A DNA stretch of 54,466 bases from an uncultured Desulfohalobiaceae bacterium (GTDB lineage: Bacteria > Desulfobacterota > Desulfovibrionia > Desulfovibrionales > Desulfothermaceae). The DNA lies in the NCBI GenBank assembly GCA_964621385.1, contig CAZUMF010000001.1:1-54466 (forward strand), given 5' to 3'. Below are positions 346 to 32,621 of the stretch, piece after piece (the stretch's first letter is position 1; each line of letters opens with the position of its first letter). Both the position numbers and the translations under genes were made by a program. The notes below the pieces were generated by a model. That model did not search any database and was not told the DNA's origin. It saw nothing but the letters and a program-made list of their open reading frames with translations.

Positions 346-897
346 ATGCAAAAATCCCCGGATGAATGCAGAGATATAGTCTGGCAGGGGTATGTCCAAG
401 TCTATACCGGTAATGGAAAAGGCAAGACCACGGCCGCCCTCGGGCAGGCCCTTCGGGCCGCCGGCGCGGGCTTGAAAACCTTTATCGGCCAGTTTGTCAA
501 AGAAAAACACAGCTGTGAACTTAAAAGTTTGACACGATTTTCTGACTTGATCACCATCAGGCAATATGGCCGGGGTTTTTTTATGGATAGGGAGCCGGAC
601 GAAGCTGATTCTCAATTTGCCAGAGACGGTCTTGAAGAAGTTATAAGTATTATTAATTCAAAAAAATTTAATGTTGTTATCCTAGATGAAATAAATATAG
701 CAACTTTTTATCACCTGATTCCTATAGAAAAAATTGTAAAAATGATTGTGAATAAACCAAAAAACCTAGAGCTTATTTTAACTGGGAGATATGCCGATTC
801 ACGAGTAATTGATGCTGCCGATCTCGTCACAGAAATGACGGTAGTTAAACATTATTCTGAGAAAGGAGTTAGGTCCAGGATAGGGATTGAAGAGTAA
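346..897 (+). CDS. cobO: ATP:cob(I)alamin adenosyltransferase, CobA/CobO/BtuR family
   Basis: 183-aa ORF with the YTGNGKGKTTAALG P-loop-like motif. Length is typical of CobA-type adenosyltransferases. Ends in TAA. Confidence 0.85.
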   Translation: MQKSPDECRDIVWQGYVQVYTGNGKGKTTAALGQALRAAGAGLKTFIGQFVKEKHSCELKSLTRFSDLITIRQYGRGFFMDREPDEADSQFARDGLEEVISIINSKKFNVVILDEINIATFYHLIPIEKIVKMIVNKPKNLELILTGRYADSRVIDAADLVTEMTVVKHYSEKGVRSRIGIEE

Positions 898-965
898 TTA
901 CACCTTATATTATTTTTACCTCTGTTATTCTTTGCATTGACATAATTTTATAGCCTAGACACTTT

Positions 966-1592
966 CTACTCCAGCAAGATGATGCTGAAACACTGGTATT
1001 CCTCTGTCACTTCCTTGGCTATCTCGTAAGATTTTCCAATATTCATAACTGTTTGGAAAATATCTATAGCACATGATTCAATAGAAGGCCGTCTGTCTTT
1101 TGGAAATTTACAAGGATTTGGGTAAGAACATATCTTACAGAGTGCACATGTATCCGAAACCAGACTAAAGGCTTTGTAGTACCCCTCCAAAAAAAGAAAG
1201 CGCTCTAAAGCAACCGTCCCTTTCCATGTACTGACTTGGATTCTTCTTTTTTGATTGTTGTTTCGATAAAAGTGAGTATTTTTCATTGTTCCATGAAGCA
1301 GCAAGGCTTTGTTATACTCACTCAGAATTACTTTGGTCTGTTCAGGGCTTGGAGTTTCTGGTGGACAACACCAGCTTGTGCCAAATTTGCTGCAACCGTA
1401 TTTGCATTTAAGCCGTACCCAATGAGCAATACAGATGTCATCTGTGCTCAAGGGAATAATGTCCTGTATATTGTACTTCTGACCGACTGCTATGAGTTTA
1501 TTGATTAATTCAGTTCCACTCTTTTTAACTTCAAATACAGTATCAATATCTTTTTCAGTTAAATCACACAACGTAATCAGCTTTTCATTCAT
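966..1592 (-). CDS. DUF2284-like Cys-rich metal-binding protein (copy 1)
   Basis: 208-aa ORF with Cys clusters (CKYGCSKFGTSWCCPP, CALCKICSYPNPC) typical of the predicted metal-binding proteins found beside corrinoid methyltransferase genes. A paralogue lies at 30894..31454. Ends in TAG, followed by 5 codons and then TAA. Confidence 0.6.
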   Translation of the reverse strand: MNEKLITLCDLTEKDIDTVFEVKKSGTELINKLIAVGQKYNIQDIIPLSTDDICIAHWVRLKCKYGCSKFGTSWCCPPETPSPEQTKVILSEYNKALLLHGTMKNTHFYRNNNQKRRIQVSTWKGTVALERFLFLEGYYKAFSLVSDTCALCKICSYPNPCKFPKDRRPSIESCAIDIFQTVMNIGKSYEIAKEVTEEYQCFSIILLE

Positions 1593-1905
1593 TTTCTACA
1601 AACCTTATGGTGACGTTTTTTTTCAAGGCCAGGTCCAGTTCCACTTCAACCGCCTTGATGATACCACAAGGGACAGGGCAGCTGGTATGGAGTTGACAAT
1701 GCCCTGCCTCCACATAAATAAAATTTTCATGTATCGGACTTTTGAGCACAGAAACCATGTCCAATTCTTTCAGAGTATCACCAAGTCGTTGAATTTTTTC
1801 ACAGTCACTTTCAAATGTGAGAAGAACCTTCCTTTGCTTTCCTTTGTGGACCCGTACTGTTGTCGATAGTCCGCAAATACCAGAAGCAATGTCAACAACA
1901 GTCAT
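1585..1905 (-). CDS. small Cys/His-rich hypothetical protein
   Basis: 106-aa ORF that overlaps the downstream gene by 8 nt (translational coupling). I recognise no family. Confidence 0.4.
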   Translation of the reverse strand: MTVVDIASGICGLSTTVRVHKGKQRKVLLTFESDCEKIQRLGDTLKELDMVSVLKSPIHENFIYVEAGHCQLHTSCPVPCGIIKAVEVELDLALKKNVTIRFVENE

Positions 1906-2049
1906 ACTTGTACCCGCATGCCAACTAAATCATCAATTCATGAAGACTGGGAACATCAATCATTCCCTGTTACCCTGCAAGAACCTATCAAGATTTTTTT
2001 TCCGGGCATCAGAATGTGAATAGCACTCTTCTGTAACCCCATCACTGAG

Positions 2050-2080
2050 GCCAGCGCGGCCAGTGGCCGCGCTGGCTTTT
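2050..2080 (+). terminator. GC-rich hairpin with T-run (terminator-like)
   Basis: Stem GCCAGCGCGGC / GCCGCGCTGGC followed by TTTT on the plus strand. It lies between two minus-strand genes, so the orientation is unexpected and the function uncertain. Confidence 0.3.
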
Positions 2081-2096
2081 GATAAATCCTAAGAAG

Positions 2097-3143
2097 TTAA
2101 CAGGATTCAAGTTGCCCGTACTTCTCCACAGCAGCCATCAGAGCCTGCATGTTCTCCTTTGGGGCTGTCGGAAAGATATCGCATCCGGGCCAAACAGCGT
2201 TGGCTCCGTTCTTGATGGATTGCTCAACTGATCTCTCTACATCTTCAGGAGATCCTGCGACCACGACCCCATAGGGATCAACATTGCCTAAAATCACCGC
2301 ACTCGGACCAAGCTTCTTGCGAGATTCAGCCAGGTCGTTCATTTGATCGACACTGACGGCGTCCGCCCCGCACTCGGCCATGGCTTCCACAACTGTATTC
2401 GTGTCCCCACAGATATGCAGAATTTTGGGAGAATCCAATGCAGCAAACACTTTTTGCAGCTGAGGCTGAATAAGATTCTTAAACATTCGGGGGCTCAAAA
2501 TATCCGGTCCAGCTCCCATTTCCCGAATCGTGATATAATCAGCTCCTGCATCCCGATACATTTTACTGATCTTCACTATAGCTTCACCCAGGGCTTCCAG
2601 AATCGGGTCGACCATGGCTTTTTTCTTGGTAGCCGACTTTGCCAGATCTCCGATGTCCAAGATCTGCCCAGCCAAGGTGTAAGGCCCAAGGGTCCAGGAA
2701 CCGATGGCCAGCTCATTTCCAACGTCCTTTTTCAAACGACTGATCGCTTCACAGACCATGGGGATTCGACCCGCACCGGACAGATCGGACGGCAGTGTAC
2801 CCAGATCCAAATCCGCGACCTTATCCGACACTTTTTGCGTGATGGTGGGAAAGACGACATCATCCCGATGGCTGTAAAAATTCACACCCGCTCCCAAAGC
2901 TTCCGCCTCGACCCCCATATCAAATGGCACCACTGCGCATTCCAAGCCGAATGATCTATAGGTGGTAGCCGCAGCATCAGCCATCTTGGCGGCATCCACA
3001 TGAATGTCAGCGAAACGGTATCCAAACTCCTCCAGCCCATGAACAGTCACGTTTCCGAAACCACTGAAGAGTGGTACCCGGTCGATCTCCTGTTTGTTGA
3101 AAAAACGGAGGATTCTCTCCCTGGAATTGAGTTTATCATTCAT
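2097..3143 (-). CDS. uroporphyrinogen decarboxylase (URO-D) family methyltransferase, MtaA/MtbA-like (MT2-type), copy 1
   Basis: 348-aa ORF with URO-D/MtaA-like sequence throughout (ERILRFFNKQEIDRVP, VPFDMGVEAEALG, HICGDT). Paralogues at 15035..16048 and 34705..35760. Confidence 0.8.
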   Translation of the reverse strand: MNDKLNSRERILRFFNKQEIDRVPLFSGFGNVTVHGLEEFGYRFADIHVDAAKMADAAATTYRSFGLECAVVPFDMGVEAEALGAGVNFYSHRDDVVFPTITQKVSDKVADLDLGTLPSDLSGAGRIPMVCEAISRLKKDVGNELAIGSWTLGPYTLAGQILDIGDLAKSATKKKAMVDPILEALGEAIVKISKMYRDAGADYITIREMGAGPDILSPRMFKNLIQPQLQKVFAALDSPKILHICGDTNTVVEAMAECGADAVSVDQMNDLAESRKKLGPSAVILGNVDPYGVVVAGSPEDVERSVEQSIKNGANAVWPGCDIFPTAPKENMQALMAAVEKYGQLESC

Positions 3144-3186
3144 GTTTTTTCTCCTTTATATGTTAAAACGATCTGATGAAAGCACC

Positions 3187-6100
3187 TCAAACTTTCGGAA
3201 GAAACTTCTCCAAATTTGGAAATTTGTCGTTCATATGGGGGATCCACATGGATCTGGCAAAAATCTTCTCAAACTTGGGATTCACAGTCAGCTCAATATA
3301 CTCGACCTTCCGCGCGAACTCATTGGCCTCATTTCTCTTGTCCGTGTTGAGCAGGGCCATACGAGCCCCGTCACCCGCAGCATTCCCAACGGAGACGACT
3401 TTATCGGGTTCACAGTCCAAAAACATGCCTAGCAGGGCAGCTGAAAGTCTGTCTATGTAGCTGCCGAACCCACCGGCCAAAACTACTTTATCGACTTTTT
3501 CAACACCATAGGTATCCAGCAAAATCTTGCTCCCGGCGTACATAGCTGCCTTGCCCAGCTGAATAGCTCTGATGTCGTCCTGGGAAACCACAACTGCCTC
3601 GCCGTGGGATGTTTCCTCCGATGTGGCGAGAACGAACTCTTTCGTCCCATCGACCTCTCGAAACCTTGGCGTATCTAAATCTTTCTTGAATTTTCCGGAT
3701 TTTTCGATGACTCCGGACAGGTACATTTGGGGTATGGCATCAATGATCCCGGAACCGCAGATACCTTTGGCGCCGGGATTTTCATCCATTTCAGTGCTCC
3801 AGCGATCATCGCCGATGATTTTAAAGCTGACCTCTTTGGTCTCCGGATCGATTTTTACTTTTTCGATCGCCCCAGGTGCTGCCCGCATGCCGTGTTTCAA
3901 CTCCGCACCTTCAAAAGCCGGCCCGGTGGCGCAGGAAGCCGAGATCAGCTTGTCCTTGTTGCCAAAGATCAATTCCCCATTGGTGCCGATATCGATGATA
4001 AGCTGAATTTCATCCTTCTTATACGGCTCCTCGCAGATGAGCACCCCCACATTGTCCGCCCCGACAAAACCGGCCTCTATAGGCAGGGAATGGACATAGG
4101 CCCCCTGAGATATGAGGATGCCGTTGCCCCGGACTTCCAATGTGTCCGCGGCGTCCTTCTCGGCATATATCGAGCAGTGCAGACAGCGCTTTGCTTCCTG
4201 GTTGACCATCTCCTCGTCAAAGCCCAATTCAACTTCGTCGAAAGTCATTCTCTTTGCCGGTTCGAGTATCGGCACCACCTGTCTGTTTGTTTTTTGAACC
4301 CCTTCTTTTGGTATGTCTTCCACTGCTTTGAATTGTGGAGGCCTGGCCTCCTTCATATCCATGCCAGAAAGAAGAAGCCCTATGGAAATGGCTGCTTCCT
4401 TACCGGCCGCTGTGGAGGAGACCACGTCAGTCGGACCGGTCACCACGTCCCCACCAGCGAAGACTCCAGCAACTGAGGTCTCCAAGGTCTCACTGTCCAC
4501 TTTGATCATACCGGAAGGAGTCTTTTCCAATTCAGGAAACAGATCCGCATTCGGCTTCTGCCCAATGGCCACGATCACAGTCTCGGTTTCAATGGTCGGG
4601 GCTGGGCCGTCTCCGTACCGAGGGGCGAATATCCCTTCGGAATCAAACACGGAAACACACTCGGCTGTCTCCACCGCCGAGACCCTGCCATTGCTGCTCA
4701 CAATCTGGGCCACACCCAGGGAATCGTGTACAATGACGCCTTCTTCCTTGGCCTGTTCGATTTCCAGATCCTGGGCCGGCATCCGTATTTCACATGTCAA
4801 ATCTGAGGATTCCAGGCAGATCAGATTGACTTCCTCGGCCCCCAGACGTTTGGACAGTCTGGCCGCATCAATAGCTACACTGCCTCCTCCAATGACCACC
4901 ACCCTGTCGCCCAGCTCGACTGTTTCTCCAGAGTTGGCCTGCTCCAAAAAAGCGACAGCCGGAATGACCCCCTGGGCGTCCTCGCCAGAAACGTTCAGTT
5001 TGAGGCTTGTCCAGCATCCGGACCCGATAAAAACGGCCTTGTATCCGGTATCAAAAAGTTCTTCAACGTTTTTGATTCTTGTGTTGGTCCTAATTTCTAC
5101 CCCAAACTCTTGGATAGAGGAAATTTCATTATCCAGAATATTCCGTGGCAATCGGTACTCGGGAATACCGTAACGCATCATGCCACCCGGTTTCGGAGCC
5201 GCCTCGAAAACAGTCACCGGGTGCCCTCTTCGGATCAAATCATAGGCGCAGGCAAGCCCGGAAGGTCCGGCGCCGATGATTCCAATTTTTTCCTCCTTTG
5301 AGATATCCACAGGTGTTGATTTCACTCTGCCTGACTGAAGTTCGTAATCCGCCAGGAAGCGATGTGCAGCCCGAATCGATATAGGTTCGTCGACTTGTCC
5401 CCTCTCGCAAACCTTTTCACATGCATGGGTGCAGACACGCCCCAAGATCCCTGCAAAAGGGAAGGAAATCCGGACAAGCTCCAAGGCCTCCTTGTACTTA
5501 TGCTGCGCAATCAGGTAGAGAAAGTCATCAATACTCAGTCCGGCCGGACACTCGACCCGGCATGGAGAATAACGACCCTTGTCAGTGGCTTCGGCTTCAG
5601 GTGGGATCTTGTACCCGAAATCACGGGCCTTGACATCGATGGAGTGGTGCATGCTCGGCGGGAAAGGCGACCGGCCGATGTATTTCGGATTCATGTTGAG
5701 ATAAAGATGATTCATGCAGGTATTGCCCACAATCGTCAGGTCTACGATATCCTGGCGTTTGATACCCGCCGCCGAGGCTGCCTCCTCGACCACACCGTTG
5801 AGCCCGTCCACAATGGCCCCGTTCAAGATTTCCAGGCCCTTGGGGTTGGTCATGGTGTAGCTGATCCGGGACATGACATCTTCGCCGTAGACCACCTGAG
5901 GATTCATCATCGAGGCCGTGGAGATAACCTTGCCGTTGGCCAAGTCTGTCAAGTAGCCGGCCACAGTGGATGTTCCCACATCTATGGCCATGCCGTAAGC
6001 CTTCTCATTGCGTCCCGGCTCAACCTTAATGATCTCCCTGTCCTGCCAGACAGTTACAGTGATCTTCCATTCGCCCTCGCGAATGGTGTTTTGCAACTCC

Positions 6101-6627
6101 ATGGCCACCTGATAATCAATGCCCAGATTTTTCAGGCCGTAAACCTTCTCCAAGGCACCCTGCAACCGTTCCAAGTCTCCCTGGTTTTCCTCCAAGGTTG
6201 GCTTTACAAGCTCCACATAATACTTCTTGACCGCGGGTTTTATTTCAATATCCAGTTCCTTGTGCGCCTTTCGGACTATCTGCTTGCCCATCCGGCTCTC
6301 CTCAGGAACAAAGACCACTACATTGCCCTGGACTTTCGCCTGACAGGACAAACGGTAGCCTTCCTCCTCCTGGCGGATATTGAAAAACTTTCTCTCCGAG
6401 GCTCCCATGGGAGAGAGACTGTCTCGTGAGGAATGAATGGCGTACTTTTCGAAATCCCCTTCTTCAACACGGATCTTACACGTCCCGCATATCGCCTGTT
6501 CTCCGCAAACACCTTCAAGATCGACACCAAGAGCAACAGAGGCCTCCTTGAGGGTCTTTCCCTCGCTGATATAACCGCGGGCTCCGGATGGTTGAAAAAT
6601 AACCAGATATTGATTTTTTTCTGCCAT
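3187..6627 (-). CDS. corrinoid reductive activase (2Fe-2S ferredoxin + ASKHA ATPase, COG3894-like) with an inserted GltD-like NAD(P)H:FAD/Fe-S oxidoreductase module
   Basis: 1146-aa ORF. Plant-type ferredoxin Cys motif (CGEQAICGTC...C95). ASKHA phosphate motifs AIDVGTST and IIDIGTNGE. Residues ~346-841 are a GltD/NfnB-like module (GRVCTHACEKVCER, GIIGAGPSGLACAYDL, VVVIGGGSVAIDAA, GVFAGGDVV, RCLHC). Confidence 0.8.
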   Translation of the reverse strand: MAEKNQYLVIFQPSGARGYISEGKTLKEASVALGVDLEGVCGEQAICGTCKIRVEEGDFEKYAIHSSRDSLSPMGASERKFFNIRQEEEGYRLSCQAKVQGNVVVFVPEESRMGKQIVRKAHKELDIEIKPAVKKYYVELVKPTLEENQGDLERLQGALEKVYGLKNLGIDYQVAMELQNTIREGEWKITVTVWQDREIIKVEPGRNEKAYGMAIDVGTSTVAGYLTDLANGKVISTASMMNPQVVYGEDVMSRISYTMTNPKGLEILNGAIVDGLNGVVEEAASAAGIKRQDIVDLTIVGNTCMNHLYLNMNPKYIGRSPFPPSMHHSIDVKARDFGYKIPPEAEATDKGRYSPCRVECPAGLSIDDFLYLIAQHKYKEALELVRISFPFAGILGRVCTHACEKVCERGQVDEPISIRAAHRFLADYELQSGRVKSTPVDISKEEKIGIIGAGPSGLACAYDLIRRGHPVTVFEAAPKPGGMMRYGIPEYRLPRNILDNEISSIQEFGVEIRTNTRIKNVEELFDTGYKAVFIGSGCWTSLKLNVSGEDAQGVIPAVAFLEQANSGETVELGDRVVVIGGGSVAIDAARLSKRLGAEEVNLICLESSDLTCEIRMPAQDLEIEQAKEEGVIVHDSLGVAQIVSSNGRVSAVETAECVSVFDSEGIFAPRYGDGPAPTIETETVIVAIGQKPNADLFPELEKTPSGMIKVDSETLETSVAGVFAGGDVVTGPTDVVSSTAAGKEAAISIGLLLSGMDMKEARPPQFKAVEDIPKEGVQKTNRQVVPILEPAKRMTFDEVELGFDEEMVNQEAKRCLHCSIYAEKDAADTLEVRGNGILISQGAYVHSLPIEAGFVGADNVGVLICEEPYKKDEIQLIIDIGTNGELIFGNKDKLISASCATGPAFEGAELKHGMRAAPGAIEKVKIDPETKEVSFKIIGDDRWSTEMDENPGAKGICGSGIIDAIPQMYLSGVIEKSGKFKKDLDTPRFREVDGTKEFVLATSEETSHGEAVVVSQDDIRAIQLGKAAMYAGSKILLDTYGVEKVDKVVLAGGFGSYIDRLSAALLGMFLDCEPDKVVSVGNAAGDGARMALLNTDKRNEANEFARKVEYIELTVNPKFEKIFARSMWIPHMNDKFPNLEKFLPKV

Positions 6628-6637
6628 AGCTTCTTCC

Positions 6638-7318
6638 TTATCCTTTTGTTTCCTCTTCTTTCAACATCTTGAGCAACTTGATGGCCTCATCCAACGCGGT
6701 CCCGGCACTTTCCGCATACCCGTCGGCACCGTACTTTTCAACAAGTTCCGGCGTGATGGGCGCTCCGCCCAGCATAATGCGGACATTGGGATTTTTCTCC
6801 TTTAATTTGGCGACAATCTCGGGCATAGAGATCATGCTGGTCGTCATCAAGGCGGACAGACCGACTATGTCGGAATTCGTCTTCAGTTGCTCCTCTATGA
6901 ATTTGTCAAGAGGCACATCCTTGCCCAGATCGTGTACTGTCCATCCAGCCACATCAAACATCATTTTGATCAAATTCTTGCCGATGTCGTGGACATCGCC
7001 CTCAACCACACCCAGGATGATCGAACCTTTCACGTCTGAAGCCCGGTCTGTTTCTTTGATCGCCGGCCGCAGGATATCCAACCCGGCATACAGCGCATCC
7101 GCGCAAAGCAGCAACTCCGGAACAAAGTATTCTTTTTTATTGTAGAGATCTCCGACCTCGATCATCCCTTCTGCCAATCCCTCCATAGTGGCTTCAAAGG
7201 GATCGACGCCCTCATCAAGTATTGTCTTGGCCAACTCCGCCACCCTATCCTCATCGTAATCCACTAAAGCGGCGCGGATCTCTTTCAATAATTCCTGTTT
7301 TCTCTCCTCTGTAGCCAT
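6638..7318 (-). CDS. corrinoid (B12-binding) methyltransferase-associated protein
   Basis: 226-aa ORF with an N-terminal helical cap domain and a Rossmann B12-binding domain carrying the DxHxxG signature ([10 protein letters not shown]). Confidence 0.9.
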   Translation of the reverse strand: MATEERKQELLKEIRAALVDYDEDRVAELAKTILDEGVDPFEATMEGLAEGMIEVGDLYNKKEYFVPELLLCADALYAGLDILRPAIKETDRASDVKGSIILGVVEGDVHDIGKNLIKMMFDVAGWTVHDLGKDVPLDKFIEEQLKTNSDIVGLSALMTTSMISMPEIVAKLKEKNPNVRIMLGGAPITPELVEKYGADGYAESAGTALDEAIKLLKMLKEEETKG

Positions 7319-7385
7319 GTTCCATCTCCTTTTCTTCTGTCATTTTGATATCTTGGGTCAATACGGCACTCTGAATAGGGTATGA

Positions 7386-8339
7386 TCAGCCAATAGACTT
7401 GAGCTGATCAACAAAATCTGGAAATAATTTATACAGTGGATGATTTTGATCTTTAGGCAATCTTTTGTGCGTGGAAAAGACCGCGGTGGCCAGGTAAGCC
7501 TCGGCCATGGCCACTGCCGGCATAATCCGGTCAACACCTCCCATGGGGCCGGAAAAAATCATGTCGTGGCTGAAGAAAGAACAGAGTCCTTCTAGGGTTG
7601 CATCTACTGCGGCCCAAGCCTTGAACCCCCATTTTTCTCTGGCTTCTTTCCACATGTATGAACCATTGCTTGGAGCACTGGAAACCGCAAACCCCCATTC
7701 CTCCTTTATCATCTGGTTAGCGAGGCTGCACATGGCACAGGCCGGTGCATTCATAGTGGCAGTATCCACAATAATGGTTTCGAATTGAGCCCCGACCTTT
7801 TCGATGGCCTCTAAGAGTTTCCTGGTACCGGTCACCCGGCCGCTCGGCATCTGATCGTCCTGATCAAAGGCCACGAGTAGAACATGTTTGACCCCTAGAT
7901 TCGCAATCTCACGAATCTCGGTTTCAAGGTCCTTCTCCCAAACGGTGAGACTGTTGTAGAACATGCGGTCCAAAAGGCCTTTTTCTGCACAGTAGGCTGC
8001 TCCTTCAAGCTTGGGCTTCAGGACCCAGGCGTCAATACAAAAGGGCATATTTGAAACCGAGGTGACAAAATCAATATAGGTTTTGAATTCTTTTCCGGAA
8101 TTGGCAACGATATCCGCCATCCCCGGGACTCCGGTTTCCTCTGCAAGTTTGTCCTGTTTCTTCAAAACTTCTTCGGCTCTTTGCTCATTGAACCCCTCTT
8201 TTCGCTTTCCAGAAAAAACCCTGTCACCCTTCTGAAAAATAGAAGAGCAGACAACGGTTGGGTATTCTCCAGGCTGTCCCCCAAACCTCACACTCCCAAT
8301 TTCATAAATGTTCTGTTCCTTATCAAAGTGAAACATCAA
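7386..8339 (-). CDS. MtrH-like methyltransferase (methyl-corrinoid:pterin type)
   Basis: 317-aa ORF. The N-terminus MFHFDKEQNIYEIGSVRFGGQPGEYPTVV resembles the tetrahydromethanopterin S-methyltransferase subunit H family. Confidence 0.75.
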   Translation of the reverse strand: MMFHFDKEQNIYEIGSVRFGGQPGEYPTVVCSSIFQKGDRVFSGKRKEGFNEQRAEEVLKKQDKLAEETGVPGMADIVANSGKEFKTYIDFVTSVSNMPFCIDAWVLKPKLEGAAYCAEKGLLDRMFYNSLTVWEKDLETEIREIANLGVKHVLLVAFDQDDQMPSGRVTGTRKLLEAIEKVGAQFETIIVDTATMNAPACAMCSLANQMIKEEWGFAVSSAPSNGSYMWKEAREKWGFKAWAAVDATLEGLCSFFSHDMIFSGPMGGVDRIMPAVAMAEAYLATAVFSTHKRLPKDQNHPLYKLFPDFVDQLKSIG

Positions 8340-8548
8340 ACGTCCTCCTTTGTAAGATATTGAATCGCATATCCCCCAAGCGCTGATCTCCTCCGAAATC
8401 CCCGTAAAACGTCAAAGGAAACCAACACCAAACATGTTCTCAATGAGTTTGAAAAACTATGACACAAGTCATCTTGTGAAATCTATCGTCAATTGTATGA
8501 ATTGTGCCCGGATAAGAGGTGAGATTCATTTGGGGGGAAGTCGAACAA

Positions 8549-9217
8549 TCAGGGTCGAACCTCTACGAGACCAAGTTCAATAGCAAACTTGATCAACTGG
8601 GAAAGACTGTTCATTTGCATTTTTTCCATGATTTTTGTGCGATGCGTTTTGACTGTACTCGAACTTATGAAAAGCATTTGCGATATTTCCTTTGTCGAGT
8701 ATCCTTCGGCAATGAGCTGGAATACTTCCCGTTCCCGATTGGAGAGCTTGCTGAAAAGGGTCTCCTGCAAGGATTTGTCTTGTCTCTGGGTGAGATAGTC
8801 CCGGACAACTTTCTTCGAAATGGAGGGGCTTAAAAAGATGTCACCCTGAACGACCGCCTTGACAGCCTTAATGATATCCTCCCCCGAAGATTTTTTGAGG
8901 AGATAGCCCGAAACACCTAAGCTGAATAGCTCACTGATGTAATAATCGTGGGAGTGCATGGAAAGAATGATAATCTTTGTCTCAGGGCAAAGCTTTCTTA
9001 TCTGTCGTGTGGCCTCTATCCCGTTCAACAAGGGCATGGTGATGTCCATCAGTACCACATCGGGAGTCAACTCTTCGGTTTTTTTCACGGCATCCCTGCC
9101 GTTCTCCGCCTCCCCGATGACCTTCAGCTCGGGATCATCATCCAGGATCCTGGCAAGGCCTTGGCGGATGACGGTATGGTCATCGCAGAGTAGAATAGTA
9201 TATTTTCCTTCAATCAC
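8549..9217 (-). CDS. NarL/FixJ (LuxR) family response regulator
   Basis: Receiver domain (ILLCDDH...VVLMDITMP) plus a LuxR-type HTH (LSNREREVFQLIAEGYSTKEISQMLFISSSTVKTHR). The likely GTG start at 9217 overlaps the kinase stop (GTGATTGA). The track ORF extends to 9277. Confidence 0.85.
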   Translation of the reverse strand: MIEGKYTILLCDDHTVIRQGLARILDDDPELKVIGEAENGRDAVKKTEELTPDVVLMDITMPLLNGIEATRQIRKLCPETKIIILSMHSHDYYISELFSLGVSGYLLKKSSGEDIIKAVKAVVQGDIFLSPSISKKVVRDYLTQRQDKSLQETLFSKLSNREREVFQLIAEGYSTKEISQMLFISSSTVKTHRTKIMEKMQMNSLSQLIKFAIELGLVEVRP

Positions 9218-11246
9218 TGGCAATCTCCGGCACTTGAATTTTGATGTAAACCTGAGTTCCCCCACCCGGAGAAGCATGAAGCGAAAAGCTTCCGCCCAGC
9301 ATGGCCACCCGTTCTCTCATGGAAAGCAATCCTATACTCTGTCTGTTGTTATCTGTATTCAAATAGTCCGGATCGAAGCCCACCCCGTTGTCCTCTGCTT
9401 TGAAAATAATATGGGGATAACTCTTTATGATCGATAGCCTGAAGGAGGATGCCTGTGCATGCCTCAGTACGTTTGTCAATGCTTCTTGAGCACAGCGGTA
9501 GAGAACCGTTTCGATTTTTGAGTCTATCCGTCCGGTAAAGCCGATCATCTTGAAATCTATCTCCAGATCGCTATGCTCTGAAACATTTTCCAAATGAGAT
9601 CTCAAGGCGGGTTCAAGCCCCAAATCACTAAGGATGGAAGGATGCAGCCGGTGGGAGAGAACACGCATGCCTTCATACGTGTTTGTTATCTGTTCCTTGA
9701 CCTCTGAGAGAACTTGTAAGGCTTGGCCTGAAGAATGAGCCAGTTTCCTCTCGAGTTCCTCCAGTTGAAATTTGATTCCGGTCAGACCCTGTCCGGCTTC
9801 GTCGTGGAGCTCTTGGGCAATTCTCTTACACTCTTTTTCCTGGGATTGAAAGAGCATCGCGGTCAAATTCTTAAGTTCCTCTCTGTCCTTGCAAACAGTT
9901 TCCCAAAGCTGCGCTTTTTGTATTGCCCCTCCAAGGAAGTTGCTCAGGGAACCCAGAAGGCGTACATCTTGATGAGAAAATGATTCCATACTGTGTTCCA
10001 AGGCAATAAAACCCAAGGCCTTGTCTTTCGCAGTGATTAAAAAACAGGTGAGCTCTCTGGACTTCCTGTGGTCGTGACCTGTAATAATCCCTCTGAAAGG
10101 AGGAAAGGTGGCCTCTGGAGTAAAGACAACATTTCTTTTCAGCATGGCCTCACTTAGACCATGGTCCTTGATATTAAATTGTTCAGACCTTCTATCCTCA
10201 ATGATATCAAGCCCTTGTTCAACACGAAGTTCAAGCTCAGATTTTTCATGATTCACCAAGAAGATACCGCCGGAATTGATTTGAAATACCTTCAGAATAT
10301 TCTTCAAGGCCATGATGAGGATATCATTCAAATCGAGTGACCGGTTGATGACCAGGGCTATAGAGTTTAAAAATTCCAACTCCCTGTTGCGCCGCAACTG
10401 ATTCCGGGTGGCATCGACCCGTGCAGTGATATCTTTTGCAATACCCTCATACCCGAGAATACTTCCGTCCTCATTTTTGAGCACGTTTCCGCTGAGCAAG
10501 CAATGCACCTTGGTGTGGTCCCTCTTCTTGAATTGGGCTTCGTACTCTTTGACAAACCCGTGCTTATCGAGTTGCTTTTGAAAGACCTTCCAGTGAATTG
10601 TTGTGTGAAATATTTCCTCTATGGAGGATAGGGAAACGATCTCTTGCTTGGTCCGATACTTCAGTAAATCCACACAGGCCTGATTGACCTCCTTGACTTT
10701 TCCCTCCCTGGATGTGATGAAGATCATATCTTGAGAGCCTTCGAAAATACGGCGATATTTTCTCTCGGAAATCTGGAGTTCCTTTTCAAGCACCTTTCGA
10801 CGTGTGATATCGGTTATGATTCCTTCCAGCGCCAGAACTTTATGGCCTTCAAGTACCCCATGGCCTTGTTCCCAGACCCATTTTTCCTGACCATCGGCGG
10901 TATGAATCCGGTATTCCAGTTCAAAGCCCTTCTTCTGCGTTAAGGCTTCCTGAATACCATTCCATACTCCATCGCGATCATCCGGATGGATCAAATCATT
11001 GTAAGAAGTGATCTGGTTATGAAGCAACTCTTCAGGCTTGTAGCCCGTCAAATTATAGCAGCCGCCACTGATCCACTCCATGGTCCAGTTCCGGTCATTC
11101 AGACAACGGTAGGCCATTCCGGGGAGATTGTTGATAATTGCGGACAGCTTGGCGGTTAACTTGACCCGGCTTTCCTGAAAGGCTTCCTCAGTTTTCCCAG
11201 GCAAAGATACCCCCCGGCTTGATTCGTGGAAAGGCTGTACATCCAT
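9210..11246 (-). CDS. PAS/GAF sensor histidine kinase (HisKA_3 / NarX-type)
   Basis: 678-aa ORF with PAS-like segments, a GAF-like middle region, an H-box ELHDEAGQGLTGIK and an HATPase_c region (EDNGVGFD...GIGLLSMRERV). Confidence 0.85.
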   Translation of the reverse strand: MDVQPFHESSRGVSLPGKTEEAFQESRVKLTAKLSAIINNLPGMAYRCLNDRNWTMEWISGGCYNLTGYKPEELLHNQITSYNDLIHPDDRDGVWNGIQEALTQKKGFELEYRIHTADGQEKWVWEQGHGVLEGHKVLALEGIITDITRRKVLEKELQISERKYRRIFEGSQDMIFITSREGKVKEVNQACVDLLKYRTKQEIVSLSSIEEIFHTTIHWKVFQKQLDKHGFVKEYEAQFKKRDHTKVHCLLSGNVLKNEDGSILGYEGIAKDITARVDATRNQLRRNRELEFLNSIALVINRSLDLNDILIMALKNILKVFQINSGGIFLVNHEKSELELRVEQGLDIIEDRRSEQFNIKDHGLSEAMLKRNVVFTPEATFPPFRGIITGHDHRKSRELTCFLITAKDKALGFIALEHSMESFSHQDVRLLGSLSNFLGGAIQKAQLWETVCKDREELKNLTAMLFQSQEKECKRIAQELHDEAGQGLTGIKFQLEELERKLAHSSGQALQVLSEVKEQITNTYEGMRVLSHRLHPSILSDLGLEPALRSHLENVSEHSDLEIDFKMIGFTGRIDSKIETVLYRCAQEALTNVLRHAQASSFRLSIIKSYPHIIFKAEDNGVGFDPDYLNTDNNRQSIGLLSMRERVAMLGGSFSLHASPGGGTQVYIKIQVPEIASD

Positions 11247-11378: not shown

Positions 11379-12044
11379 CTATGAGGTTGTATTCCGTTCA
11401 TTGTTCGTGCGCCCCAGCTGAAGCCCTACCAGGATTGTGCCCACACCTTTTTCATTGACCCCTTTGAAATACTTTGTTTTCAAGAAATTGTCCGTCAGAG
11501 TGGACGGGTTGGCAAAAATAACGGCATTGAAGTTTATTAGATGGTTTTTTCCTTCCAGCCTGCACCACTCTGCGGGCAGACAGGGGGTATCAAAATAACA
11601 GGTTTTATCCATCAATTCCTTGGGAAAAGACATTCTGTCCTTATAAATGACAAAACACTCATGCATGAACCAGACGTTTTCTTGGCTTGACAACTTCGAT
11701 CGATCCTCTTCATCCCGCACCTCCTCCCCCACAACTTCATCACCTTTTTTCAATACGAGGCTCGGTAAACGGCCCCAGTCAAAATCCATATTTGTCAAGC
11801 CAACAACGATGTGTGTACACTGGAGGACTTCTCGTAAACCGCTGTTGAAGACTTTGCCCAATCCCATGAGACTTCTCTTTTCCGATTCAGTTTCAATCTC
11901 AAGTATTTTTTGGTGGTCTTCATCCAGGAGGAAAGCAGCCCCGATAATCCCCTTGCTGTTCTGCAAGGCACGAAGTAAGATATCGCTCAAAGAATCATTA
12001 TCCATCATTCCTCCAGGCAAGGTCTTCAGAGATAAAGACCTCAC
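11379..12044 (-). CDS. hypothetical protein coupled to ramA
   Basis: 221-aa ORF whose GTG start overlaps the ramA stop (GTGA). I recognise no domain. Ends in TAG. Confidence 0.4.
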   Translation of the reverse strand: MRSLSLKTLPGGMMDNDSLSDILLRALQNSKGIIGAAFLLDEDHQKILEIETESEKRSLMGLGKVFNSGLREVLQCTHIVVGLTNMDFDWGRLPSLVLKKGDEVVGEEVRDEEDRSKLSSQENVWFMHECFVIYKDRMSFPKELMDKTCYFDTPCLPAEWCRLEGKNHLINFNAVIFANPSTLTDNFLKTKYFKGVNEKGVGTILVGLQLGRTNNERNTTS

Positions 12045-13720
12045 GCCGTGATCAAACTATTCCAGCTAAAGACTTTTTCTTCACAGATCGCCTCGCATCT
12101 CTTACAGGCAATCCCATTGCACAAACCCAACTCTATGGAAATCTCGAAAAGATTCTCTCTTTCCTCCAGTTGAAGCGCCTTTTCCGGACATTCCTCAACA
12201 CAGAGGGCACATCCGATGCATCCAGAAAAAAGAATCTGTTTCTCCTGGCCAATGTCCTCAATGATTCGTAACCCATGAATTCCGGTATCGGCTATGTCTC
12301 TTTTCACCTTTTTGAAAATTTCAACACGGTTGTCTGTTTCTTTCAATCGCGGCAGGCCGAACTTTTTCAGGAAATGCTGGTACTGTCCGTAGGTCATCCC
12401 TTCAGTCCAAAAAGATAATTCCAGGATATACACTTTCTCAAAGACCTTGGATTCGGCGAACATACAATGATGTTGCCTCAGTTGATCCGAAACCCGCTGC
12501 ATGCGGAGGAGTTCATCCTCGTTTTGCAGCAAATCCCTGGCCATGGCCAGGGAGGTGTTCCCCACCTGATAGATCTTTGTTGCTCCGGCCGGAATCAGTC
12601 CCACGTCTTTGGCCTTCAGAGCATCCACATACGTTCCTGAAGCGCCTGACATATAGACTGTCCCGATCTTCTCCAAACCGATGCCCGCTTCATGACACAA
12701 GGCCATATGACCGGCGCGCACCGCCCCAAAAGCCTTTCCGGCTTCAATCACATCTTTGGAGTGAAACCTGACGCTGTTTGGCAAATAAATGTATCCATCC
12801 CTGGTGGCAATTTTTGGAAGCTGAATGAAACCATACTCCATGCCCTGGCTCATGAGGGCGATGACCCCGGTCCCTGTGATACCAACTGCCCGTTCTCCTT
12901 TGTGAAAGAGCTCACCAGTATTCGGGTCAACCGTATCGCCAGGATAGGAAAGCATGTCCTTGCCGAGAACATAGGTTTTCAGCCAACCAGAGACGGATTG
13001 ATCATCCTGATTTTTCCCTGCCGGCCGAGTCTTGGACTCCTTGGCTTCAAAGTCGACATCCGAAATGGCTCCAGGGAGCGCCAGCAGTCCGTCCCCTATC
13101 TGTTGCCCTTCCAAGGCCGGCCCGGCCGCCGTAGACCCTGAGTAGACCCTGCCGTTTGCGATCAAAGCCATTTCAGCATTGGTCCCATAATCAGTGGCAA
13201 TCGCGATTTCATCTTTTTCCAGCATGCCGGTTTGGATCATCATGGCCAAAGCGTCGGCCCCGACCTCATGCCTCACAGCAGGAGGAATCAAGACATCGGC
13301 CTTCGCCGGCAGGTCAAGTCCGCGTATCTGTGAGGTTTTGAACAATCCTCCATCCCTGTTGGGGGGGGTGACTCCCAAGGCCTGGAGTTTGCGTTTCCCG
13401 GCATAGGCCAGATCTCGTATCTCAATTTCCTGAAACAGGGACAGCTGAATGGGGTTTCCGCATACCGCCAGTTTGACAATCGACTCTTTGGCGACACCCA
13501 TGTTTTCAATTAGCTTATTAACGGCCTCCACAACAATCTCGTGGGTCCATTGCAGCCCAACTTCAACAGCGCAATGGAGATGATCCATGACATTGGCCCC
13601 CGGCAAAGGATGACGGGGGGTAACGACGGTCGAAAGGATCAATCCATCCTGCTCGAGATCGACTGCCTGCCCCCTGAATCCACTGGTTCCCAGATCCAAA
13701 GCAATACCAATCTTTGGCAT
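12041..13720 (-). CDS. ramA: methylamine methyltransferase corrinoid protein reductive activase, RamA type
   Basis: 559-aa ORF. The N-terminus IALDLGTSGFRGQ...LAVCGNPIQLSLFQEIEIRDLAYAG...TDYGTNAEMAL closely matches my recollection of Methanosarcina RamA. The C-terminus has two ferredoxin-type Cys clusters (CIGCALCVEECP, CNGIACKRCEAICE). Confidence 0.85.
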   Translation of the reverse strand: MPKIGIALDLGTSGFRGQAVDLEQDGLILSTVVTPRHPLPGANVMDHLHCAVEVGLQWTHEIVVEAVNKLIENMGVAKESIVKLAVCGNPIQLSLFQEIEIRDLAYAGKRKLQALGVTPPNRDGGLFKTSQIRGLDLPAKADVLIPPAVRHEVGADALAMMIQTGMLEKDEIAIATDYGTNAEMALIANGRVYSGSTAAGPALEGQQIGDGLLALPGAISDVDFEAKESKTRPAGKNQDDQSVSGWLKTYVLGKDMLSYPGDTVDPNTGELFHKGERAVGITGTGVIALMSQGMEYGFIQLPKIATRDGYIYLPNSVRFHSKDVIEAGKAFGAVRAGHMALCHEAGIGLEKIGTVYMSGASGTYVDALKAKDVGLIPAGATKIYQVGNTSLAMARDLLQNEDELLRMQRVSDQLRQHHCMFAESKVFEKVYILELSFWTEGMTYGQYQHFLKKFGLPRLKETDNRVEIFKKVKRDIADTGIHGLRIIEDIGQEKQILFSGCIGCALCVEECPEKALQLEERENLFEISIELGLCNGIACKRCEAICEEKVFSWNSLITA

Positions 13721-13900
13721 GTCTGACTCCGAATACTCAGACTCGATATAGCAAGGGTGATCAAATGCCCTTTATCAGCTTTCGAGATAAGTTATAAACT
13801 CAGATTCTATTTGTATTGTTTGATAAAAAAAAGTTTATGGAATGGAACAATTACTTGTAATGATGGAAAATTTGACTAGTATATGAAAAATGGACTTCAA

Positions 13901-14236
13901 CTATTTCCGATTATGCTGTAAAAGTGAACCATAATGCCGCTTGAAACTGGTGGAAGAATATTTACTCATTTTCCAGTCCGGGACTTTGCACTTTTCACAA
14001 GGTTTCGTAAACCACTTATTTCTGAGCCACCGAGCACCACGGCTGTTTTTTGAATTGTTGACCATGAATTGCATGTTGCAATGAGTGGTGATCCAGGCCT
14101 GTTCTCCTTTCTTTTCGATAGTTCTGATTCCATGAAGGACACCTTTCCGAGAAGGCCAGAGCTTGATTTTGTCAATAAGGCTGAAGAGCTCGACCCTCTT
14201 TCTGTAATACCTCTTGGCTGGTTCACATTTAACCAT
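13901..14236 (-). CDS. pylSn: PylSn, stand-alone N-terminal (tRNA-Pyl-binding) domain of pyrrolysyl-tRNA synthetase
   Basis: LWPSRKGVLHGIRTIEKKGEQAWITTHCNMQFMVNNSKNSRGARWLRNKWFTKPCEKCKVPDW aligns with the N-terminal domain of archaeal PylS (LWMSRTGTIHKIKHH...[28 protein letters not shown]). The ATG at 14236 overlaps the pylD stop (ATGGTTAA). The track ORF start at 14413 is an out-of-context extension. Ends in TAG. Confidence 0.8.
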   Translation of the reverse strand: MVKCEPAKRYYRKRVELFSLIDKIKLWPSRKGVLHGIRTIEKKGEQAWITTHCNMQFMVNNSKNSRGARWLRNKWFTKPCEKCKVPDWKMSKYSSTSFKRHYGSLLQHNRK

Positions 14237-14881
14237 TGGCAATTCTGACCAACATGGTTGCGGTTCCGATCTGCAATGGATCGTGTAAAATCCTCGATCC
14301 TGCTTCAGTGATCCCCTTTTGATCCAGACCAAGGGGCATGCCCGGAGCAGCAATGAACATCTCCCGGGAAATAACTTTGCCAGGGATGACTCCCGCCGCA
14401 TTCGTGGCTTCAAAGACCAATCGGCTCTGCTCCAAAGCTTTTTCCAAATGCTGAGTTATTGGAACCTCCTTTGAACTGATACTGCTCAGTTGTTCAGAAG
14501 CAGTTCGACTCTTGGTCCGGTCCAGATCGTACAGGGAGACATCGGCAAAATTGGGCAATCACTTTTTTTCCTGATTGCTTCCCCCAGTCCGCCAACATCT
14601 GTCTCATGGGCTACAAAAGCCGGACAACCTAAATATGCAGCGATCGAACAGACGGCTTCTGAAAAACCTGGAAGCGAACCCTGACCACTGGTTATTGGTA
14701 TAACAGCTGTGTGTAGGGTGGTCGAAAAGAATGGTGCATGCCACCTGCAAGTACGCGATTTTTCTTTACCCGGCTCTGGATTATCAGACTGATTCCTGAG
14801 CTATTTTTCAAATTGACTAATCAATCTTTTTAATAATTCCAGAATAATACAAAGAAGGTTTTTAACACTTCTTCCTTTCAT
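14229..14881 (-). pseudogene. pylD: pylD (3-methylornithyl-N6-L-lysine dehydrogenase), apparently disrupted
   Basis: The C-terminal frame (14229..14558) reads FEATNAAGVIPGK...PLQIGTATML, like the PylD C-terminus. A different frame upstream (14561..14881) reads AVIPITSGQGSLPGFSEAV...DVGGLGEAIRKK, like the PylD N-terminal domain. The two frames need a 1-nt correction near 14545..14563. An in-frame TAG lies at 14801..14803 with no start codon after it. No GxGxxG loop is visible, and the total is ~217 codons. Confidence 0.65.
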
Positions 14882-15034
14882 AATTCTTCATAATTATTGT
14901 TTAACGGTTTCGCTCTGCTTTGTCAACACGTGGCTGAGTATCTAAAGGGACTAGCTTCAATCTGAGCATTTTGTCTCATAGGACCGAACCCTTTTTGGAG
15001 TGTTCCTTCATACTTAAGAGTTAGCGAAAGTATT

Positions 15035-23383: not shown

Positions 23384-23444
23384 GGGGGGACTGTTGAGTT
23401 CAACGCCATGTTTGACAACTGTAAATGAAAACAGGAGGAAGTGT

Positions 23445-30893: not shown

Positions 30894-31454
30894 ATGAGAA
30901 ACGATAGCTCCGAAAAAGAATTGACACACGCTCTCAAAGAGATGGCCAGCAAACACAATGTAAAGCTTTTTTCCTATGATGTGCAGCAAATAAAGCCTTC
31001 TGAGAGTATCCGGCTCAAATGTCAAGTGCCGCTTTGCGAGTACTACGGGGTCTGCAAAGTCTGTCCTCCACATATCCCGAGTGTGGAAGAATTCAGAAAA
31101 ATACTGAAAGATTACACGCAATGTTTTCTGGTTGTCTTTCAGGAAGATATAGATAATATTGCCCTCTACCGCCACGACTACCGGGCAGAATTGAAACTGG
31201 CAGAAGCAGTGTCTGAGTTGGAGAATACTGCCTTTGTGCACGGAGAATACATGGCCTTGGGTTTGACAGTTGGCGGCTGCAAATTATGCAGCGATTGCAC
31301 CGCTGCCGGTGAACCGTGCCGGCATCCTTTCAAGGCCCGTCCCAGCCCAGAAGGATTTGGCATTGACATTACCAGGATGGCACGGGAAGTTGGCGTGCCT
31401 GTGGAATGGCCCCCTCGGAAAACGGTCAATTTCATAGGTCTTGTTCTCATATGA
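30894..31454 (+). CDS. DUF2284-like Cys-rich metal-binding protein (copy 2)
   Basis: 186-aa ORF with CQVPLCEYYGVCKVCPP and CKLCSDCTAAGEPC motifs. Paralogous to 966..1592. Confidence 0.6.
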   Translation: MRNDSSEKELTHALKEMASKHNVKLFSYDVQQIKPSESIRLKCQVPLCEYYGVCKVCPPHIPSVEEFRKILKDYTQCFLVVFQEDIDNIALYRHDYRAELKLAEAVSELENTAFVHGEYMALGLTVGGCKLCSDCTAAGEPCRHPFKARPSPEGFGIDITRMAREVGVPVEWPPRKTVNFIGLVLI

Positions 31455-32568: not shown

Positions 32569-32621
32569 GAGAACAATTTCTTGATCCCAAACAGGACACC
32601 CAGTACTCTTACTTCTACCGT

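Follow-up and report, generated by a model that had tools for sequence, protein, structure and literature searches.

The locus and its activase gene

We analyzed a 54,466-nucleotide (nt) stretch of DNA (the window) from an uncultured Desulfohalobiaceae bacterium (contig CAZUMF010000001.1). On its minus strand, at 3187..6627, lies an open reading frame (ORF) of 1146 amino acids (aa) that runs uninterrupted from ATG to TGA, with a purine-rich stretch (AAGGAAGAAGC) immediately 5' of the ATG. By its domain content, motifs, and context, the encoded protein is a member of the RACE/RACo family of corrinoid reductive activases. A surface loop of its ASKHA ATPase domain is occupied by a GltD/NfnB-type module for flavin adenine dinucleotide (FAD), NAD(P)H, and two [4Fe-4S] clusters, so we refer to the protein as the fusion. 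Its parts, all on the minus strand, are:

3187..6627 (-): the whole ORF, a RACE-type corrinoid reductive activase with an inserted GltD/NfnB-type module (ORF; Pfam, NCBIfam, and PDB sequence matches)
6307..6627 (-): N-terminal plant-type [2Fe-2S] ferredoxin domain, aa 1-107, ligands C41, C47, C50, and C95 (Pfam Fer2 at aa 21-100)
6004..6258 (-): RACo linker domain, aa 124-208 (PF17650, 2.5e-27)
5590..5997 (-): opening segment of the ASKHA ATPase, which bears the phosphate-1 motif AIDVGTST; aa 211-346, "RACo middle" (PF17651, 5.3e-49)
5593..5616 (-): left copy of an 8-residue direct repeat, aa 338-345, GYKIPPEA (family consensus GLKIAPEA; alignment)
4123..5589 (-): inserted, circularly permuted GltD/NfnB-type module, 489 aa, aa 347-835 (hidden Markov models (HMMs), PDB matches, predicted fold, alignment)
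5332..5571 (-): main part of the module's Fe-S subdomain, aa 353-432 (Fer4_20 at aa 354-432, profile positions 30-111)
4363..5295 (-): FAD and NAD(P)H Rossmann domains, aa 445-755 (Pyr_redox_2 at aa 448-741)
4261..4362 (-): linker between the ancestral C-terminus and the ancestral N-terminus of the GltD module, aa 756-789 (low similarity, also aligns with StnC-type chains; predicted local distance difference test (pLDDT) 53-69)
4171..4260 (-): displaced canonical GltD/NfnB N-terminus, aa 790-819, RMTFDEVELGFDEEMVNQEAKRCLHCS, with Cys1 and Cys2 = C815 and C818 (Fer4_20, NfnB alignment)
4099..4122 (-): right copy of the direct repeat, aa 836-843, GILISQGA (family consensus GIKIAPGA; alignment)
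3190..4122 (-): remainder of the ASKHA ATPase, aa 836-1146, with the nucleotide-binding motifs IIDIGTNGE and LAGGFG (RACo_C_ter, PF14574, at aa 873-1139, 1e-93)

An earlier reading of the locus, made from the sequence alone (the sequence-only reading), had described a RACo-type start, and we found both the Fer2 domain (Pfam) and AIDVGTST (motif check). The ferredoxin domain aligns to residues 3-88 of RACo (3zyy), and its four ligands are invariant in an alignment of 33 members of the fusion family (33/33; 58-100% identity). The Raco_middle match at aa 211-346 spans just profile positions 1-136 of 163. Profile positions 117-156 pick up directly after the insert and are followed by RACo_C_ter, so the ASKHA domain does resume there, as the sequence-only reading had held. 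The RACo crystal-structure sequence (3zyy) accordingly aligns as two blocks: residues 6-327 of the fusion match RACo 3-323 and residues 842-1139 match RACo 340-630, with scores of 1e-41 and 1e-58. In a Foldseek search, the predicted fold also matched RACo (TMt 0.64-0.78). The nucleotide-binding residues of the ASKHA domain (D216/G218/T221 for phosphate-1, D879/G881/T882/E885 for phosphate-2, and G1052/G1055 for adenosine) are invariant across the family alignment.

The fusion reaches 424 bits, in two separate stretches, against the AcsV family NF040756, which is under the curated cutoff of 800 bits, and no acs genes were seen among the genes that we scanned. Against the RamA family (TIGR04270), it scores 107 bits versus a cutoff of 500, and Pfam finds no C-terminal Fer4 domain. 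Because both cutoffs are missed, we place the fusion outside the AcsV and RamA equivalogs. In public databases, its homologues are annotated as "DUF4445 domain-containing protein", "ASKHA domain-containing protein", or "FAD-dependent oxidoreductase".

The insert is a GltD/NfnB-type module

When the fusion is aligned with its nearest stand-alone RACo relatives (~53% identity), these contribute zero residues to the columns of aa 347-835, so we place the insert at aa 347-835/841 (nt ~4105/4123..5589). The sequence-only reading had given 4105..5592, which agrees, and the scan with domain HMMs confirmed the insertion boundaries. The motifs that it had listed are all present: AIDVGTST, CRVECP, GRVCTHACEKVCER, GIIGAGPSGLACAYDL, VVVIGGGSVAIDAA, GVFAGGDVV, RCLHC, and IIDIGTNGE.

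HMMs, PDB sequence matches, and the predicted fold agree that the middle region is a GltD/NfnB-type flavoprotein. In NCBIfam, PRK12771 ("NAD(P)-binding protein") matches aa 348-819 at 432 bits, and TIGR01316 matches at 289 bits. Among PDB sequences, the insert matches StnC/NfnABC chains at 1e-86 to 1e-97 and NfnB of T. maritima at 1e-69. An AlphaFold2 model, built from the 33-sequence alignment, has a mean pLDDT of 72.8 and a predicted TM-score (pTM) of 0.48, with pLDDT of ~90 over aa 440-600 and high values in the Rossmann domains. When compared by Foldseek, the predicted fold has a TM-score of 0.79 to NfnB (4ylf_B) with a root-mean-square deviation of 3.1 Å, and StnC/NfnABC are matched as well.

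The expected parts of such a module are all there. The Fe-S subdomain has Cys3 and Cys4 (C356 and C360, in CRVECP), then C399/C403/C407 (in GRVCTHACEKVC), and H422 at the position of the non-cysteine ligand. The Rossmann motifs are GAGPSG at 450-457, GGGSVA at 580-585, and GGD at 725-727, and within them G452/G454/G457, G580/G582/A585, and G725/G726 are invariant in the family alignment. The sequence-only reading had described a complete GltD/NfnB-type unit. The completeness holds, with the correction that the module is circularly permuted and not collinear. Its coordinates and motifs stand, and it made no mention of the strand, the permutation, the histidine at the special ligand position, or the missing motif for the 2'-phosphate of NADPH.

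The module is circularly permuted within a cluster motif

The segment at aa 792-819 (RMTFDEVELGFDEEMVNQEAKRCLHCS) matches by itself to positions 3-28 of the Fer4_20 profile, while the main part of the Fe-S subdomain in its native place starts at position 30. We therefore re-joined the pieces computationally, with aa 775-819 placed before aa 353-774. The Fer4_20 score rose from 70.7 to 91.1 bits and the profile coverage extended from 30-111 to 3-111. The score for TIGR01316 rose from 288.9 to 309.9 bits (profile positions 7-445 of 449), and the score against NfnB (4YLF_B) rose from 235 to 264 bits over residues 15-461, with no gap at the joint. Once re-joined, the displaced N-terminus aligns without gaps to residues 15-44 of 4ylf_B. 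(PRK12771 and PRK12814 favor the native order over the re-permuted one, with 432 and 357 bits versus 415 and 346 bits.)

The published cluster motif of NfnB is RCx2Cx4Cx3CPV (PMC6405883), and the re-permutation restores it: the artificial joint reads CLHC-SYSP-CRVECP, versus CLQC-PTHP-CVSGCP in NfnB. In the native order this motif is split, with Cx3CP at aa 356-361 and RCx2C at aa 814-818, and it is contiguous only when re-permuted. The chain thus enters the module at Cys3 (C356) and exits right behind Cys2 (C818), so that the first cluster motif is broken within its four-residue loop. With this entry and exit, the module is joined directly to the ATPase by its Fe-S end. The permutation places the cluster whose ligands are at the junction, presumably the outer one of the pair, on the ATPase surface, which explains how such a cassette can be inserted into other domains.

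The same permuted cassette is found in other proteins. In the PDB, the insert is matched best by the large subunits of StnABC/NfnABC (8OH5_C, 9BOV_A, and 9N5U_A), in which CxxxCP is found around residue 104 and EAxRCLxC around residues 560-595. In StnC, aa 102-565 form a GltD-like domain with NADPH, FAD, and two [4Fe-4S] clusters that separates aa 1-101 from the remainder of a NuoG-like domain; its FAD is non-bifurcating, and StnC carries the NADPH:methyl-viologen activity of the complex (PMC10482914). In a search of 1.84 billion representatives, we checked 29 GltD-like relatives outside the fusion family: 27 have CxxxCP and then RCxxC ~440-490 residues on, and the other two appear to be N-terminally truncated. 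All 41 motif-pair segments of non-fusion relatives that we aligned to the insert keep the seven cluster cysteines. In the eight non-fusion relatives that we scanned with Pfam, Fer4_20 begins at profile position 19-30, and the hosts of the cassette include proteins with Fer4_11, DHO_dh, FlpD, and cupredoxin domains. We conclude that the permuted GltD cassette is a recurrent, insertable module and that the insert belongs to its StnC/PRK12771-type branch.

The closest non-fusion GltD-like relative is P0174 (locus L085, 688-2352; 53% identity). We considered whether it was a frameshifted piece of a fusion and rejected this: it is a Fer4_11-type ferredoxin subunit that is interrupted by the same cassette. 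Like the window's fusion, it has the CLE-type variant of the dinucleotide site, which here reads CLESRDLSC. We also note that it adjoins a gene fragment that, by eye, resembles part of a molybdopterin oxidoreductase.

Cluster ligands and the dinucleotide site

The seven cluster cysteines of the insert (C356, C360, C399, C403, C407, C815, and C818) are invariant in the family alignment (33/33). H422, at the non-cysteine ligand position of the FAD-proximal cluster, is just as invariant among the fusion proteins. It aligns with the glutamate of NfnB and with K170 of StnC, which are the reported non-cysteine ligands of the proximal cluster in those proteins (PMC6405883; PMC10482914). In the 41 non-fusion permuted segments, this position is K in 32, E in four, H in three, and R in two. 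R492, the equivalent of R201 in NfnB and R239 in StnC, is conserved in 32 of the 33 members.

The motif that binds the 2'-phosphate of NADPH, YRR, is absent from the clade that includes the window's protein, which has C604-L605-E606 instead. The variant stretch after strand beta-2, CLESSDLTC (aa 604-612), includes five extra residues (aa 608-612); it reads ICLESSDLTCEIR in the window's clade, and the acidic E606 replaces the second arginine. YRRS is retained in fusion members that are up to 62% identical to the window's protein, and in P0004. The CLE-type variant is also present in non-fusion cassettes. As these are unrelated enzymes with the same cassette, we regard the variant as a functional subtype and not as decay. 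Because an acidic CLE replaces the NADPH-binding YRR, the general rule for Rossmann folds suggests that the window's clade may prefer NADH, and the sister clade that keeps YRR probably uses NADPH.

The fusion recurs across phyla

Among 5.8 billion proteins, clustered at 90% identity, at least 120 clusters share the architecture of RACo plus Fer4_20/Pyr_redox, with lengths of 1097-1188 aa and 58-91% identity. The survey thus found the same insertion well beyond the window. These clusters are drawn from NCBI, ENA, JGI, and Logan assemblies, and the named members come from metagenome-assembled genomes (MAGs) of Deltaproteobacteria/Desulfobacterota, Chloroflexota, and "Pseudomonadota". Among GTDB species representatives, we found the insert in one MAG each of Syntrophales, Thermodesulfobacteriota, Desulfobacteraceae, and Dehalococcoidia. 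Contigs were scanned with RACo-specific peptide patterns, and at least four of the 80 loci listed bear the insert (L005-L008). Most of the 80 are ordinary RACo genes because the patterns are specific to RACo.

The breadth of the family bears on whether the fusion is an artefact, that is, a chimeric assembly or a miscall that joins two adjacent genes. We consider this hardly conceivable, and we found nothing that favors it. The same length and architecture appear in at least 120 clusters from four data sources, and seven independently assembled loci share the reading frame and keep the neighboring genes. The interrupted domain resumes exactly at the break point, and composition is uniform (the G+C fraction is 0.533 in the insert and 0.516 in the remainder of the gene). 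The misassembly that the sequence-only reading had allowed for can therefore be set aside.

At 50% identity, the fusion forms one cluster among the 1.84 billion representatives: P0089 is the sole full-length fusion, and the rest are plain RACo or plain GltD-like proteins. This fits a single origin, after which the fusion would have spread across phyla. The insert is also flanked by the 8-residue direct repeat listed above. In several members its two copies are identical at 6 of 8 positions, and there this is the unique best internal match; in the window's protein, 3 of 8 positions are identical. Stand-alone RACo proteins have a single copy, for instance GIKISPGAYVH. From these alignments, the repeat looks like the footprint of one insertion event. 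As a separate observation, RACo has been fused to other domains as well: the C-terminal domain is a URO-D (methyltransferase-like) domain in one of two further proteins, P0160 (911 aa) and P0157 (784 aa), and a cyclic-nucleotide-binding domain in the other.

Gene neighborhood

The fusion lies in a co-directional cluster of genes on the minus strand. Its neighbors are:

966..1592 (-): DUF2284 protein ("predicted metal-binding protein"), in the same cluster as the fusion
2097..3143 (-): MtaA/CmuA-family (URO-D fold) methyltransferase (PF01208; PRK06252, 269 bits, cutoff 244)
6638..7318 (-): corrinoid protein, 226 aa, the presumed substrate (B12-binding_2 and B12-binding; TIGR02370, 201 bits)
7386..8339 (-): MtrH/MtgA-like methyl-corrinoid:pterin methyltransferase (PF02007; PRK00979, 276.9 bits)
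8549-9277 and 9210-11246 (-): PAS/GAF histidine kinase and LuxR-type response regulator, directly upstream of the methyltransferase operon
12041..13720 (-): RamA activase, 559 aa, with a C-terminal domain with two [4Fe-4S] clusters (TIGR04270, 732 bits, cutoff 500)

The gene for the corrinoid protein ends 10 nt upstream of the start of the activase. A homologue (68-83% identity) is present in all seven related loci, six of which have it immediately upstream of the fusion. The MtaA-like gene is 44 nt downstream of the activase, and a homologue is present in the available stretch of five of the seven related loci. A homologue of the MtrH-like gene is also present in five of the seven, with none in L007 or in the available stretch of L006, which ends at a contig end. 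The genes for the corrinoid protein and for the MtrH-like and MtaA-like proteins accompany the fusion in loci from Desulfobacterota, Syntrophales, and Dehalococcoidia. Similarly, the closest stand-alone RACo (P0156) is in a cluster with genes for URO-D, a corrinoid protein, DUF6951, DUF2284, and CobW. Among the neighbors that we scanned, there was no partner subunit of the NfnA or GltB type.

The kinase and regulator ORFs, as listed, overlap by 68 nt, so the true start of the regulator is probably further downstream. A scan of 800..9400 for promoters and terminators found sites that were no more numerous than in shuffled sequence and did not yield operon boundaries.

Conventional activases occur nearby. 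RamA, which the sequence-only reading had placed at 12041..13720, is confirmed there by its score, which is well above the cutoff. It lies 5.4 kb from the fusion and has a 4-nt overlap with a 221-aa ORF with a GTG start (11379-12044(-)) that has no match in Pfam or NCBIfam. In L001, a locus with 70% identity, an ordinary RACo-type activase of 667 aa is encoded at 13247-15250, 1.7 kb downstream of the fused one.

A second gene for a DUF2284 protein is at 30894-31454(+), and both copies in the window adjoin genes for corrinoid methyltransferases. DUF2284 and DUF6951 recur in related methyltransferase clusters (the DUF2284-type entries include L086 7071-7667 and L004 7362-7697). These proteins may be accessory to corrinoid methyltransferase systems.

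Other genes in the window

The window contains four genes for methylamine methyltransferases, two of MttB type and two of MtbB type, at 23394-24428(+), 25195-26241(+), 29171-30232(+), and 43467-44528(-). Each ends at an in-frame TAG, and a frame that extends the homology runs on for another 162, 115, 112, and 164 codons. We read these TAGs as pyrrolysine codons; the genome itself appears to be bacterial (Desulfobacterota-like). PylSn, the small N-terminal subunit of the Pyl-tRNA ligase, is encoded separately at 13901-14413(-) (TIGR03912, 128 bits), and PylB is encoded at 33461-34555(+) (TIGR03910, 457 bits, above the cutoff). Between the second DUF2284 gene and PylB are genes for a MoxR-type AAA ATPase and a VWA-domain protein (31585-33425(+)). 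Genes related to cobamides are scattered at 346-897(+), 16100-17071(-), and 36035-36943(-) and encode a corrinoid adenosyltransferase of the BtuR/CobO type, a CobW-family GTPase, and CbiL (precorrin-2/cobalt-factor II C20-methyltransferase).

Proposed function

We propose that the fusion is a self-sufficient activase that would use NAD(P)H and ATP to reduce Co(II) to Co(I) in the adjacent corrinoid protein. We give this a probability of roughly 0.65. The most parsimonious reading is that NAD(P)H is a built-in source of electrons and that ATP powers the uphill step, and it is supported by the invariant cofactor and ATPase motifs and by the gene context. In RACE activases, a flexibly linked [2Fe-2S] domain is the electron donor, and one ATP is used per electron for the reduction of Co(II) (PMC7317905). 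The StnC-type cassette oxidizes NADPH and feeds a chain of Fe-S clusters (PMC10482914).

In the proposed mechanism, a hydride would pass from NAD(P)H to the FAD. Single electrons would then move through the FAD-proximal [4Fe-4S] cluster (three cysteines and the invariant H422) and through the second [4Fe-4S] cluster at the junction (C815, C818, C356, and one cysteine of the second motif) and would arrive at the mobile N-terminal [2Fe-2S] domain. As in RACo, binding and hydrolysis of ATP in the ASKHA domain would drive the uphill transfer to the Co(II) of the bound corrinoid protein. With Co(I) restored, the MtaA-like and MtrH-like methyltransferases could resume. By analogy with the GltD domain of StnC, the inserted module is most likely a simple entry point for electrons that does not bifurcate.

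Several points weigh against this proposal. The function is assigned from homology and gene context. The assignment of cysteines to clusters is likewise drawn from ferredoxin-type motifs and the description of StnC and not from a structure, and we count the effect of the invariant histidine on the potential of the cluster, within a GltD fold, as a weak point. The window's clade is without the canonical YRR, which makes the identity of the dinucleotide, and even its binding, uncertain. Ordinary activases (RamA in the window and RACo in L001) share these neighborhoods, so the fusion is not simply compensating for a missing activase. Finally, the confidence of the AlphaFold2 model is moderate overall and low at both insert junctions, and its domain packing and distances between cofactors are not reliable.

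The coexisting activases, together with the missing YRR, would also fit a module that is not the source of electrons for activation. It might instead be a redox sensor or brake, a reverse sink (from Fe-S to FAD to NAD(P)+), or a dock for ferredoxin at the outer [4Fe-4S] cluster, and external low-potential donors would still be required. A dock has a precedent in that ferredoxin is predicted to bind at the distal cluster of NfnB (PMC6405883). We think that such a role is unlikely. Both Rossmann glycine motifs, the residues that contact FAD, and all of the cluster ligands are invariant over 58-100% identity, which argues for a dinucleotide site that is used in catalysis. The CLE-type site appears to be a functional subtype, since it is found in unrelated enzymes with the same cassette, and the solved relatives employ the module as an NADPH input (PMC10482914). 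Another view accepts the NAD(P)H input and assigns the fusion a catalytic role instead of a repair role, with an electron delivered to the corrinoid protein in each turnover of a reductive reaction by the MtaA-like/MtrH-like system. This would account for a fused and dedicated high-flux input. The four-gene module is tightly conserved, the corrinoid protein (68-83%) is more conserved than the activase, and the MtaA-like enzyme is without an assigned substrate. We doubt it strongly, as the partners (MtaA/CmuA family and MtrH/MtgA-like) are ordinary components of methyl transfer, which is redox-neutral chemistry, and a catalytic cycle that spent one ATP per electron would be expensive.

It is quite improbable, in our view, that the module bifurcates, with its NfnB-like flavin sending one electron downhill to the [2Fe-2S] cluster or an external acceptor and the other, now energized, along both [4Fe-4S] clusters to ferredoxin or Co(II). 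Such a flow would add to the step that ATP drives or take over part of it. In favor of this, the insert shares its fold and motifs with NfnB, the classic subunit for bifurcation; the arginine at 492 is kept; and the combination of a [2Fe-2S] cluster, FAD, and two [4Fe-4S] clusters is that of the NfnAB complex (PMC10482914; PMC6405883). But the glutamate ligand that is credited with the very low potential of NfnB's proximal cluster is replaced by an invariant histidine, and there is no second flavin or site for a high-potential two-electron acceptor. The closest relatives, the StnC-type domains, were shown to be non-bifurcating (PMC10482914). Furthermore, the ATPase motifs are fully conserved, so coupling to ATP has not been dispensed with. 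A long shot is that the flavin of the insert still bifurcates, or that the ATPase cycle mechanically gates a hard-wired chain, so that bifurcation and ATP hydrolysis in one polypeptide would together push electrons from NAD(P)H to the Co(II)/Co(I) couple at about -500 mV. To our knowledge, these two biological ways of energizing an electron have not been described in combination in one enzyme.

Implications

We searched the full-text literature for an activase of the RACE type that contains its own NAD(P)H module and found no description of one, which is not proof of its absence elsewhere. The sequence-only reading had not known of a characterized example either. A preprint on the mlp gene cluster describes ordinary activases only. 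The fusion is novel as a combination, and we expect its underlying chemistry to be that of the known modules.

As far as we know, the physiological electron donor of RACE- and RamA-type activases has generally not been established. Experiments in vitro with activases use artificial reductants, for example Ti(III) citrate. For one lineage, a natural activase that contains an NAD(P)H-oxidizing module would be a directly testable answer to the question of the donor. If the proposal is correct, the fusion would also be a one-protein reagent, supplied with NAD(P)H and ATP, that could maintain the activity of corrinoid methyltransferases in engineered hosts or in vitro. For protein evolution, this is a case of a permuted redox cassette that was apparently inserted once into a loop of an ATPase, with a flanking duplication of eight residues, while the same cassette recurs in StnC-type transhydrogenases and in ferredoxin-type subunits of molybdoenzymes. 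The variation between E, K, and H at the ligand of the proximal cluster provides a natural series on a fold with bifurcating and non-bifurcating members. Finally, the fusion family is frequent in MAGs from anoxic sediment and groundwater (Desulfobacterota, Syntrophales, and Dehalococcoidia), which makes it relevant to the turnover of methyl groups there.

Comparison with known systems

The host part of the fusion is closest to RACo from Carboxydothermus hydrogenoformans (PDB 3ZYY and 4C1N) and to the RACE family (OdmC; RamQ). These share the [2Fe-2S], linker, middle, and C-terminal ASKHA domains, the nucleotide-binding motifs, and a gene location next to a corrinoid protein and methyltransferases. 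RACo differs in having 16 residues where the fusion has ~500. It also has no flavin, [4Fe-4S] clusters, or dinucleotide site, and it needs an external reductant. RamA has an ASKHA core of the same superfamily, and its job is the ATP-dependent reduction of Co(II), which is the role we propose for the fusion. Unlike the fusion, RamA has no N-terminal 2Fe-2S domain and has a C-terminal ferredoxin domain with two [4Fe-4S] clusters.

The insert is most like the GltD-like domain of StnC from StnABC of Sporomusa ovata (8OH5) and of NfnABC (9BOV and 9N5U). These domains have the same permuted order, with CxxxCP and then RCxxC ~460 residues on. The domain of StnC is also inserted into another redox domain, after a 2Fe-2S domain, and is an electron input with NADPH, FAD, and two [4Fe-4S] clusters (PMC10482914). 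StnC differs in its host, which is not an ATPase but a NuoG/FdhF-like subunit within a bifurcating complex, and in its proximal ligand, a lysine (K170) where the fusion family has histidine; also, C114 of StnC is not conserved in the fusion. NfnB (T. maritima, 4YLF) and GltD (the beta subunit of glutamate synthase) share the fold, the motifs RCx2Cx4Cx3CP and GRVC..C..C, and the Rossmann folds for FAD and NADPH. In contrast to the insert, they are collinear and work with NfnA or GltB as partners. NfnB has a glutamate at the special ligand position where the fusion family has histidine, and the window's clade also lacks YRR.

Other systems bring electrons from flavoproteins to the cobalt of a corrinoid. 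For MetH, this is done by methionine synthase reductase or flavodoxin, and the uphill step is driven by methylation with S-adenosylmethionine and not by an ASKHA ATPase. In self-sufficient NADPH-dependent reductive dehalogenases, electrons from NADPH are reportedly wired to the corrinoid cobalt by a fused flavoprotein. The diflavin and PDR-type reductases of the MetH and dehalogenase systems have folds that are unrelated to those of the fusion, so the likeness to our proposed activase is one of analogy only.

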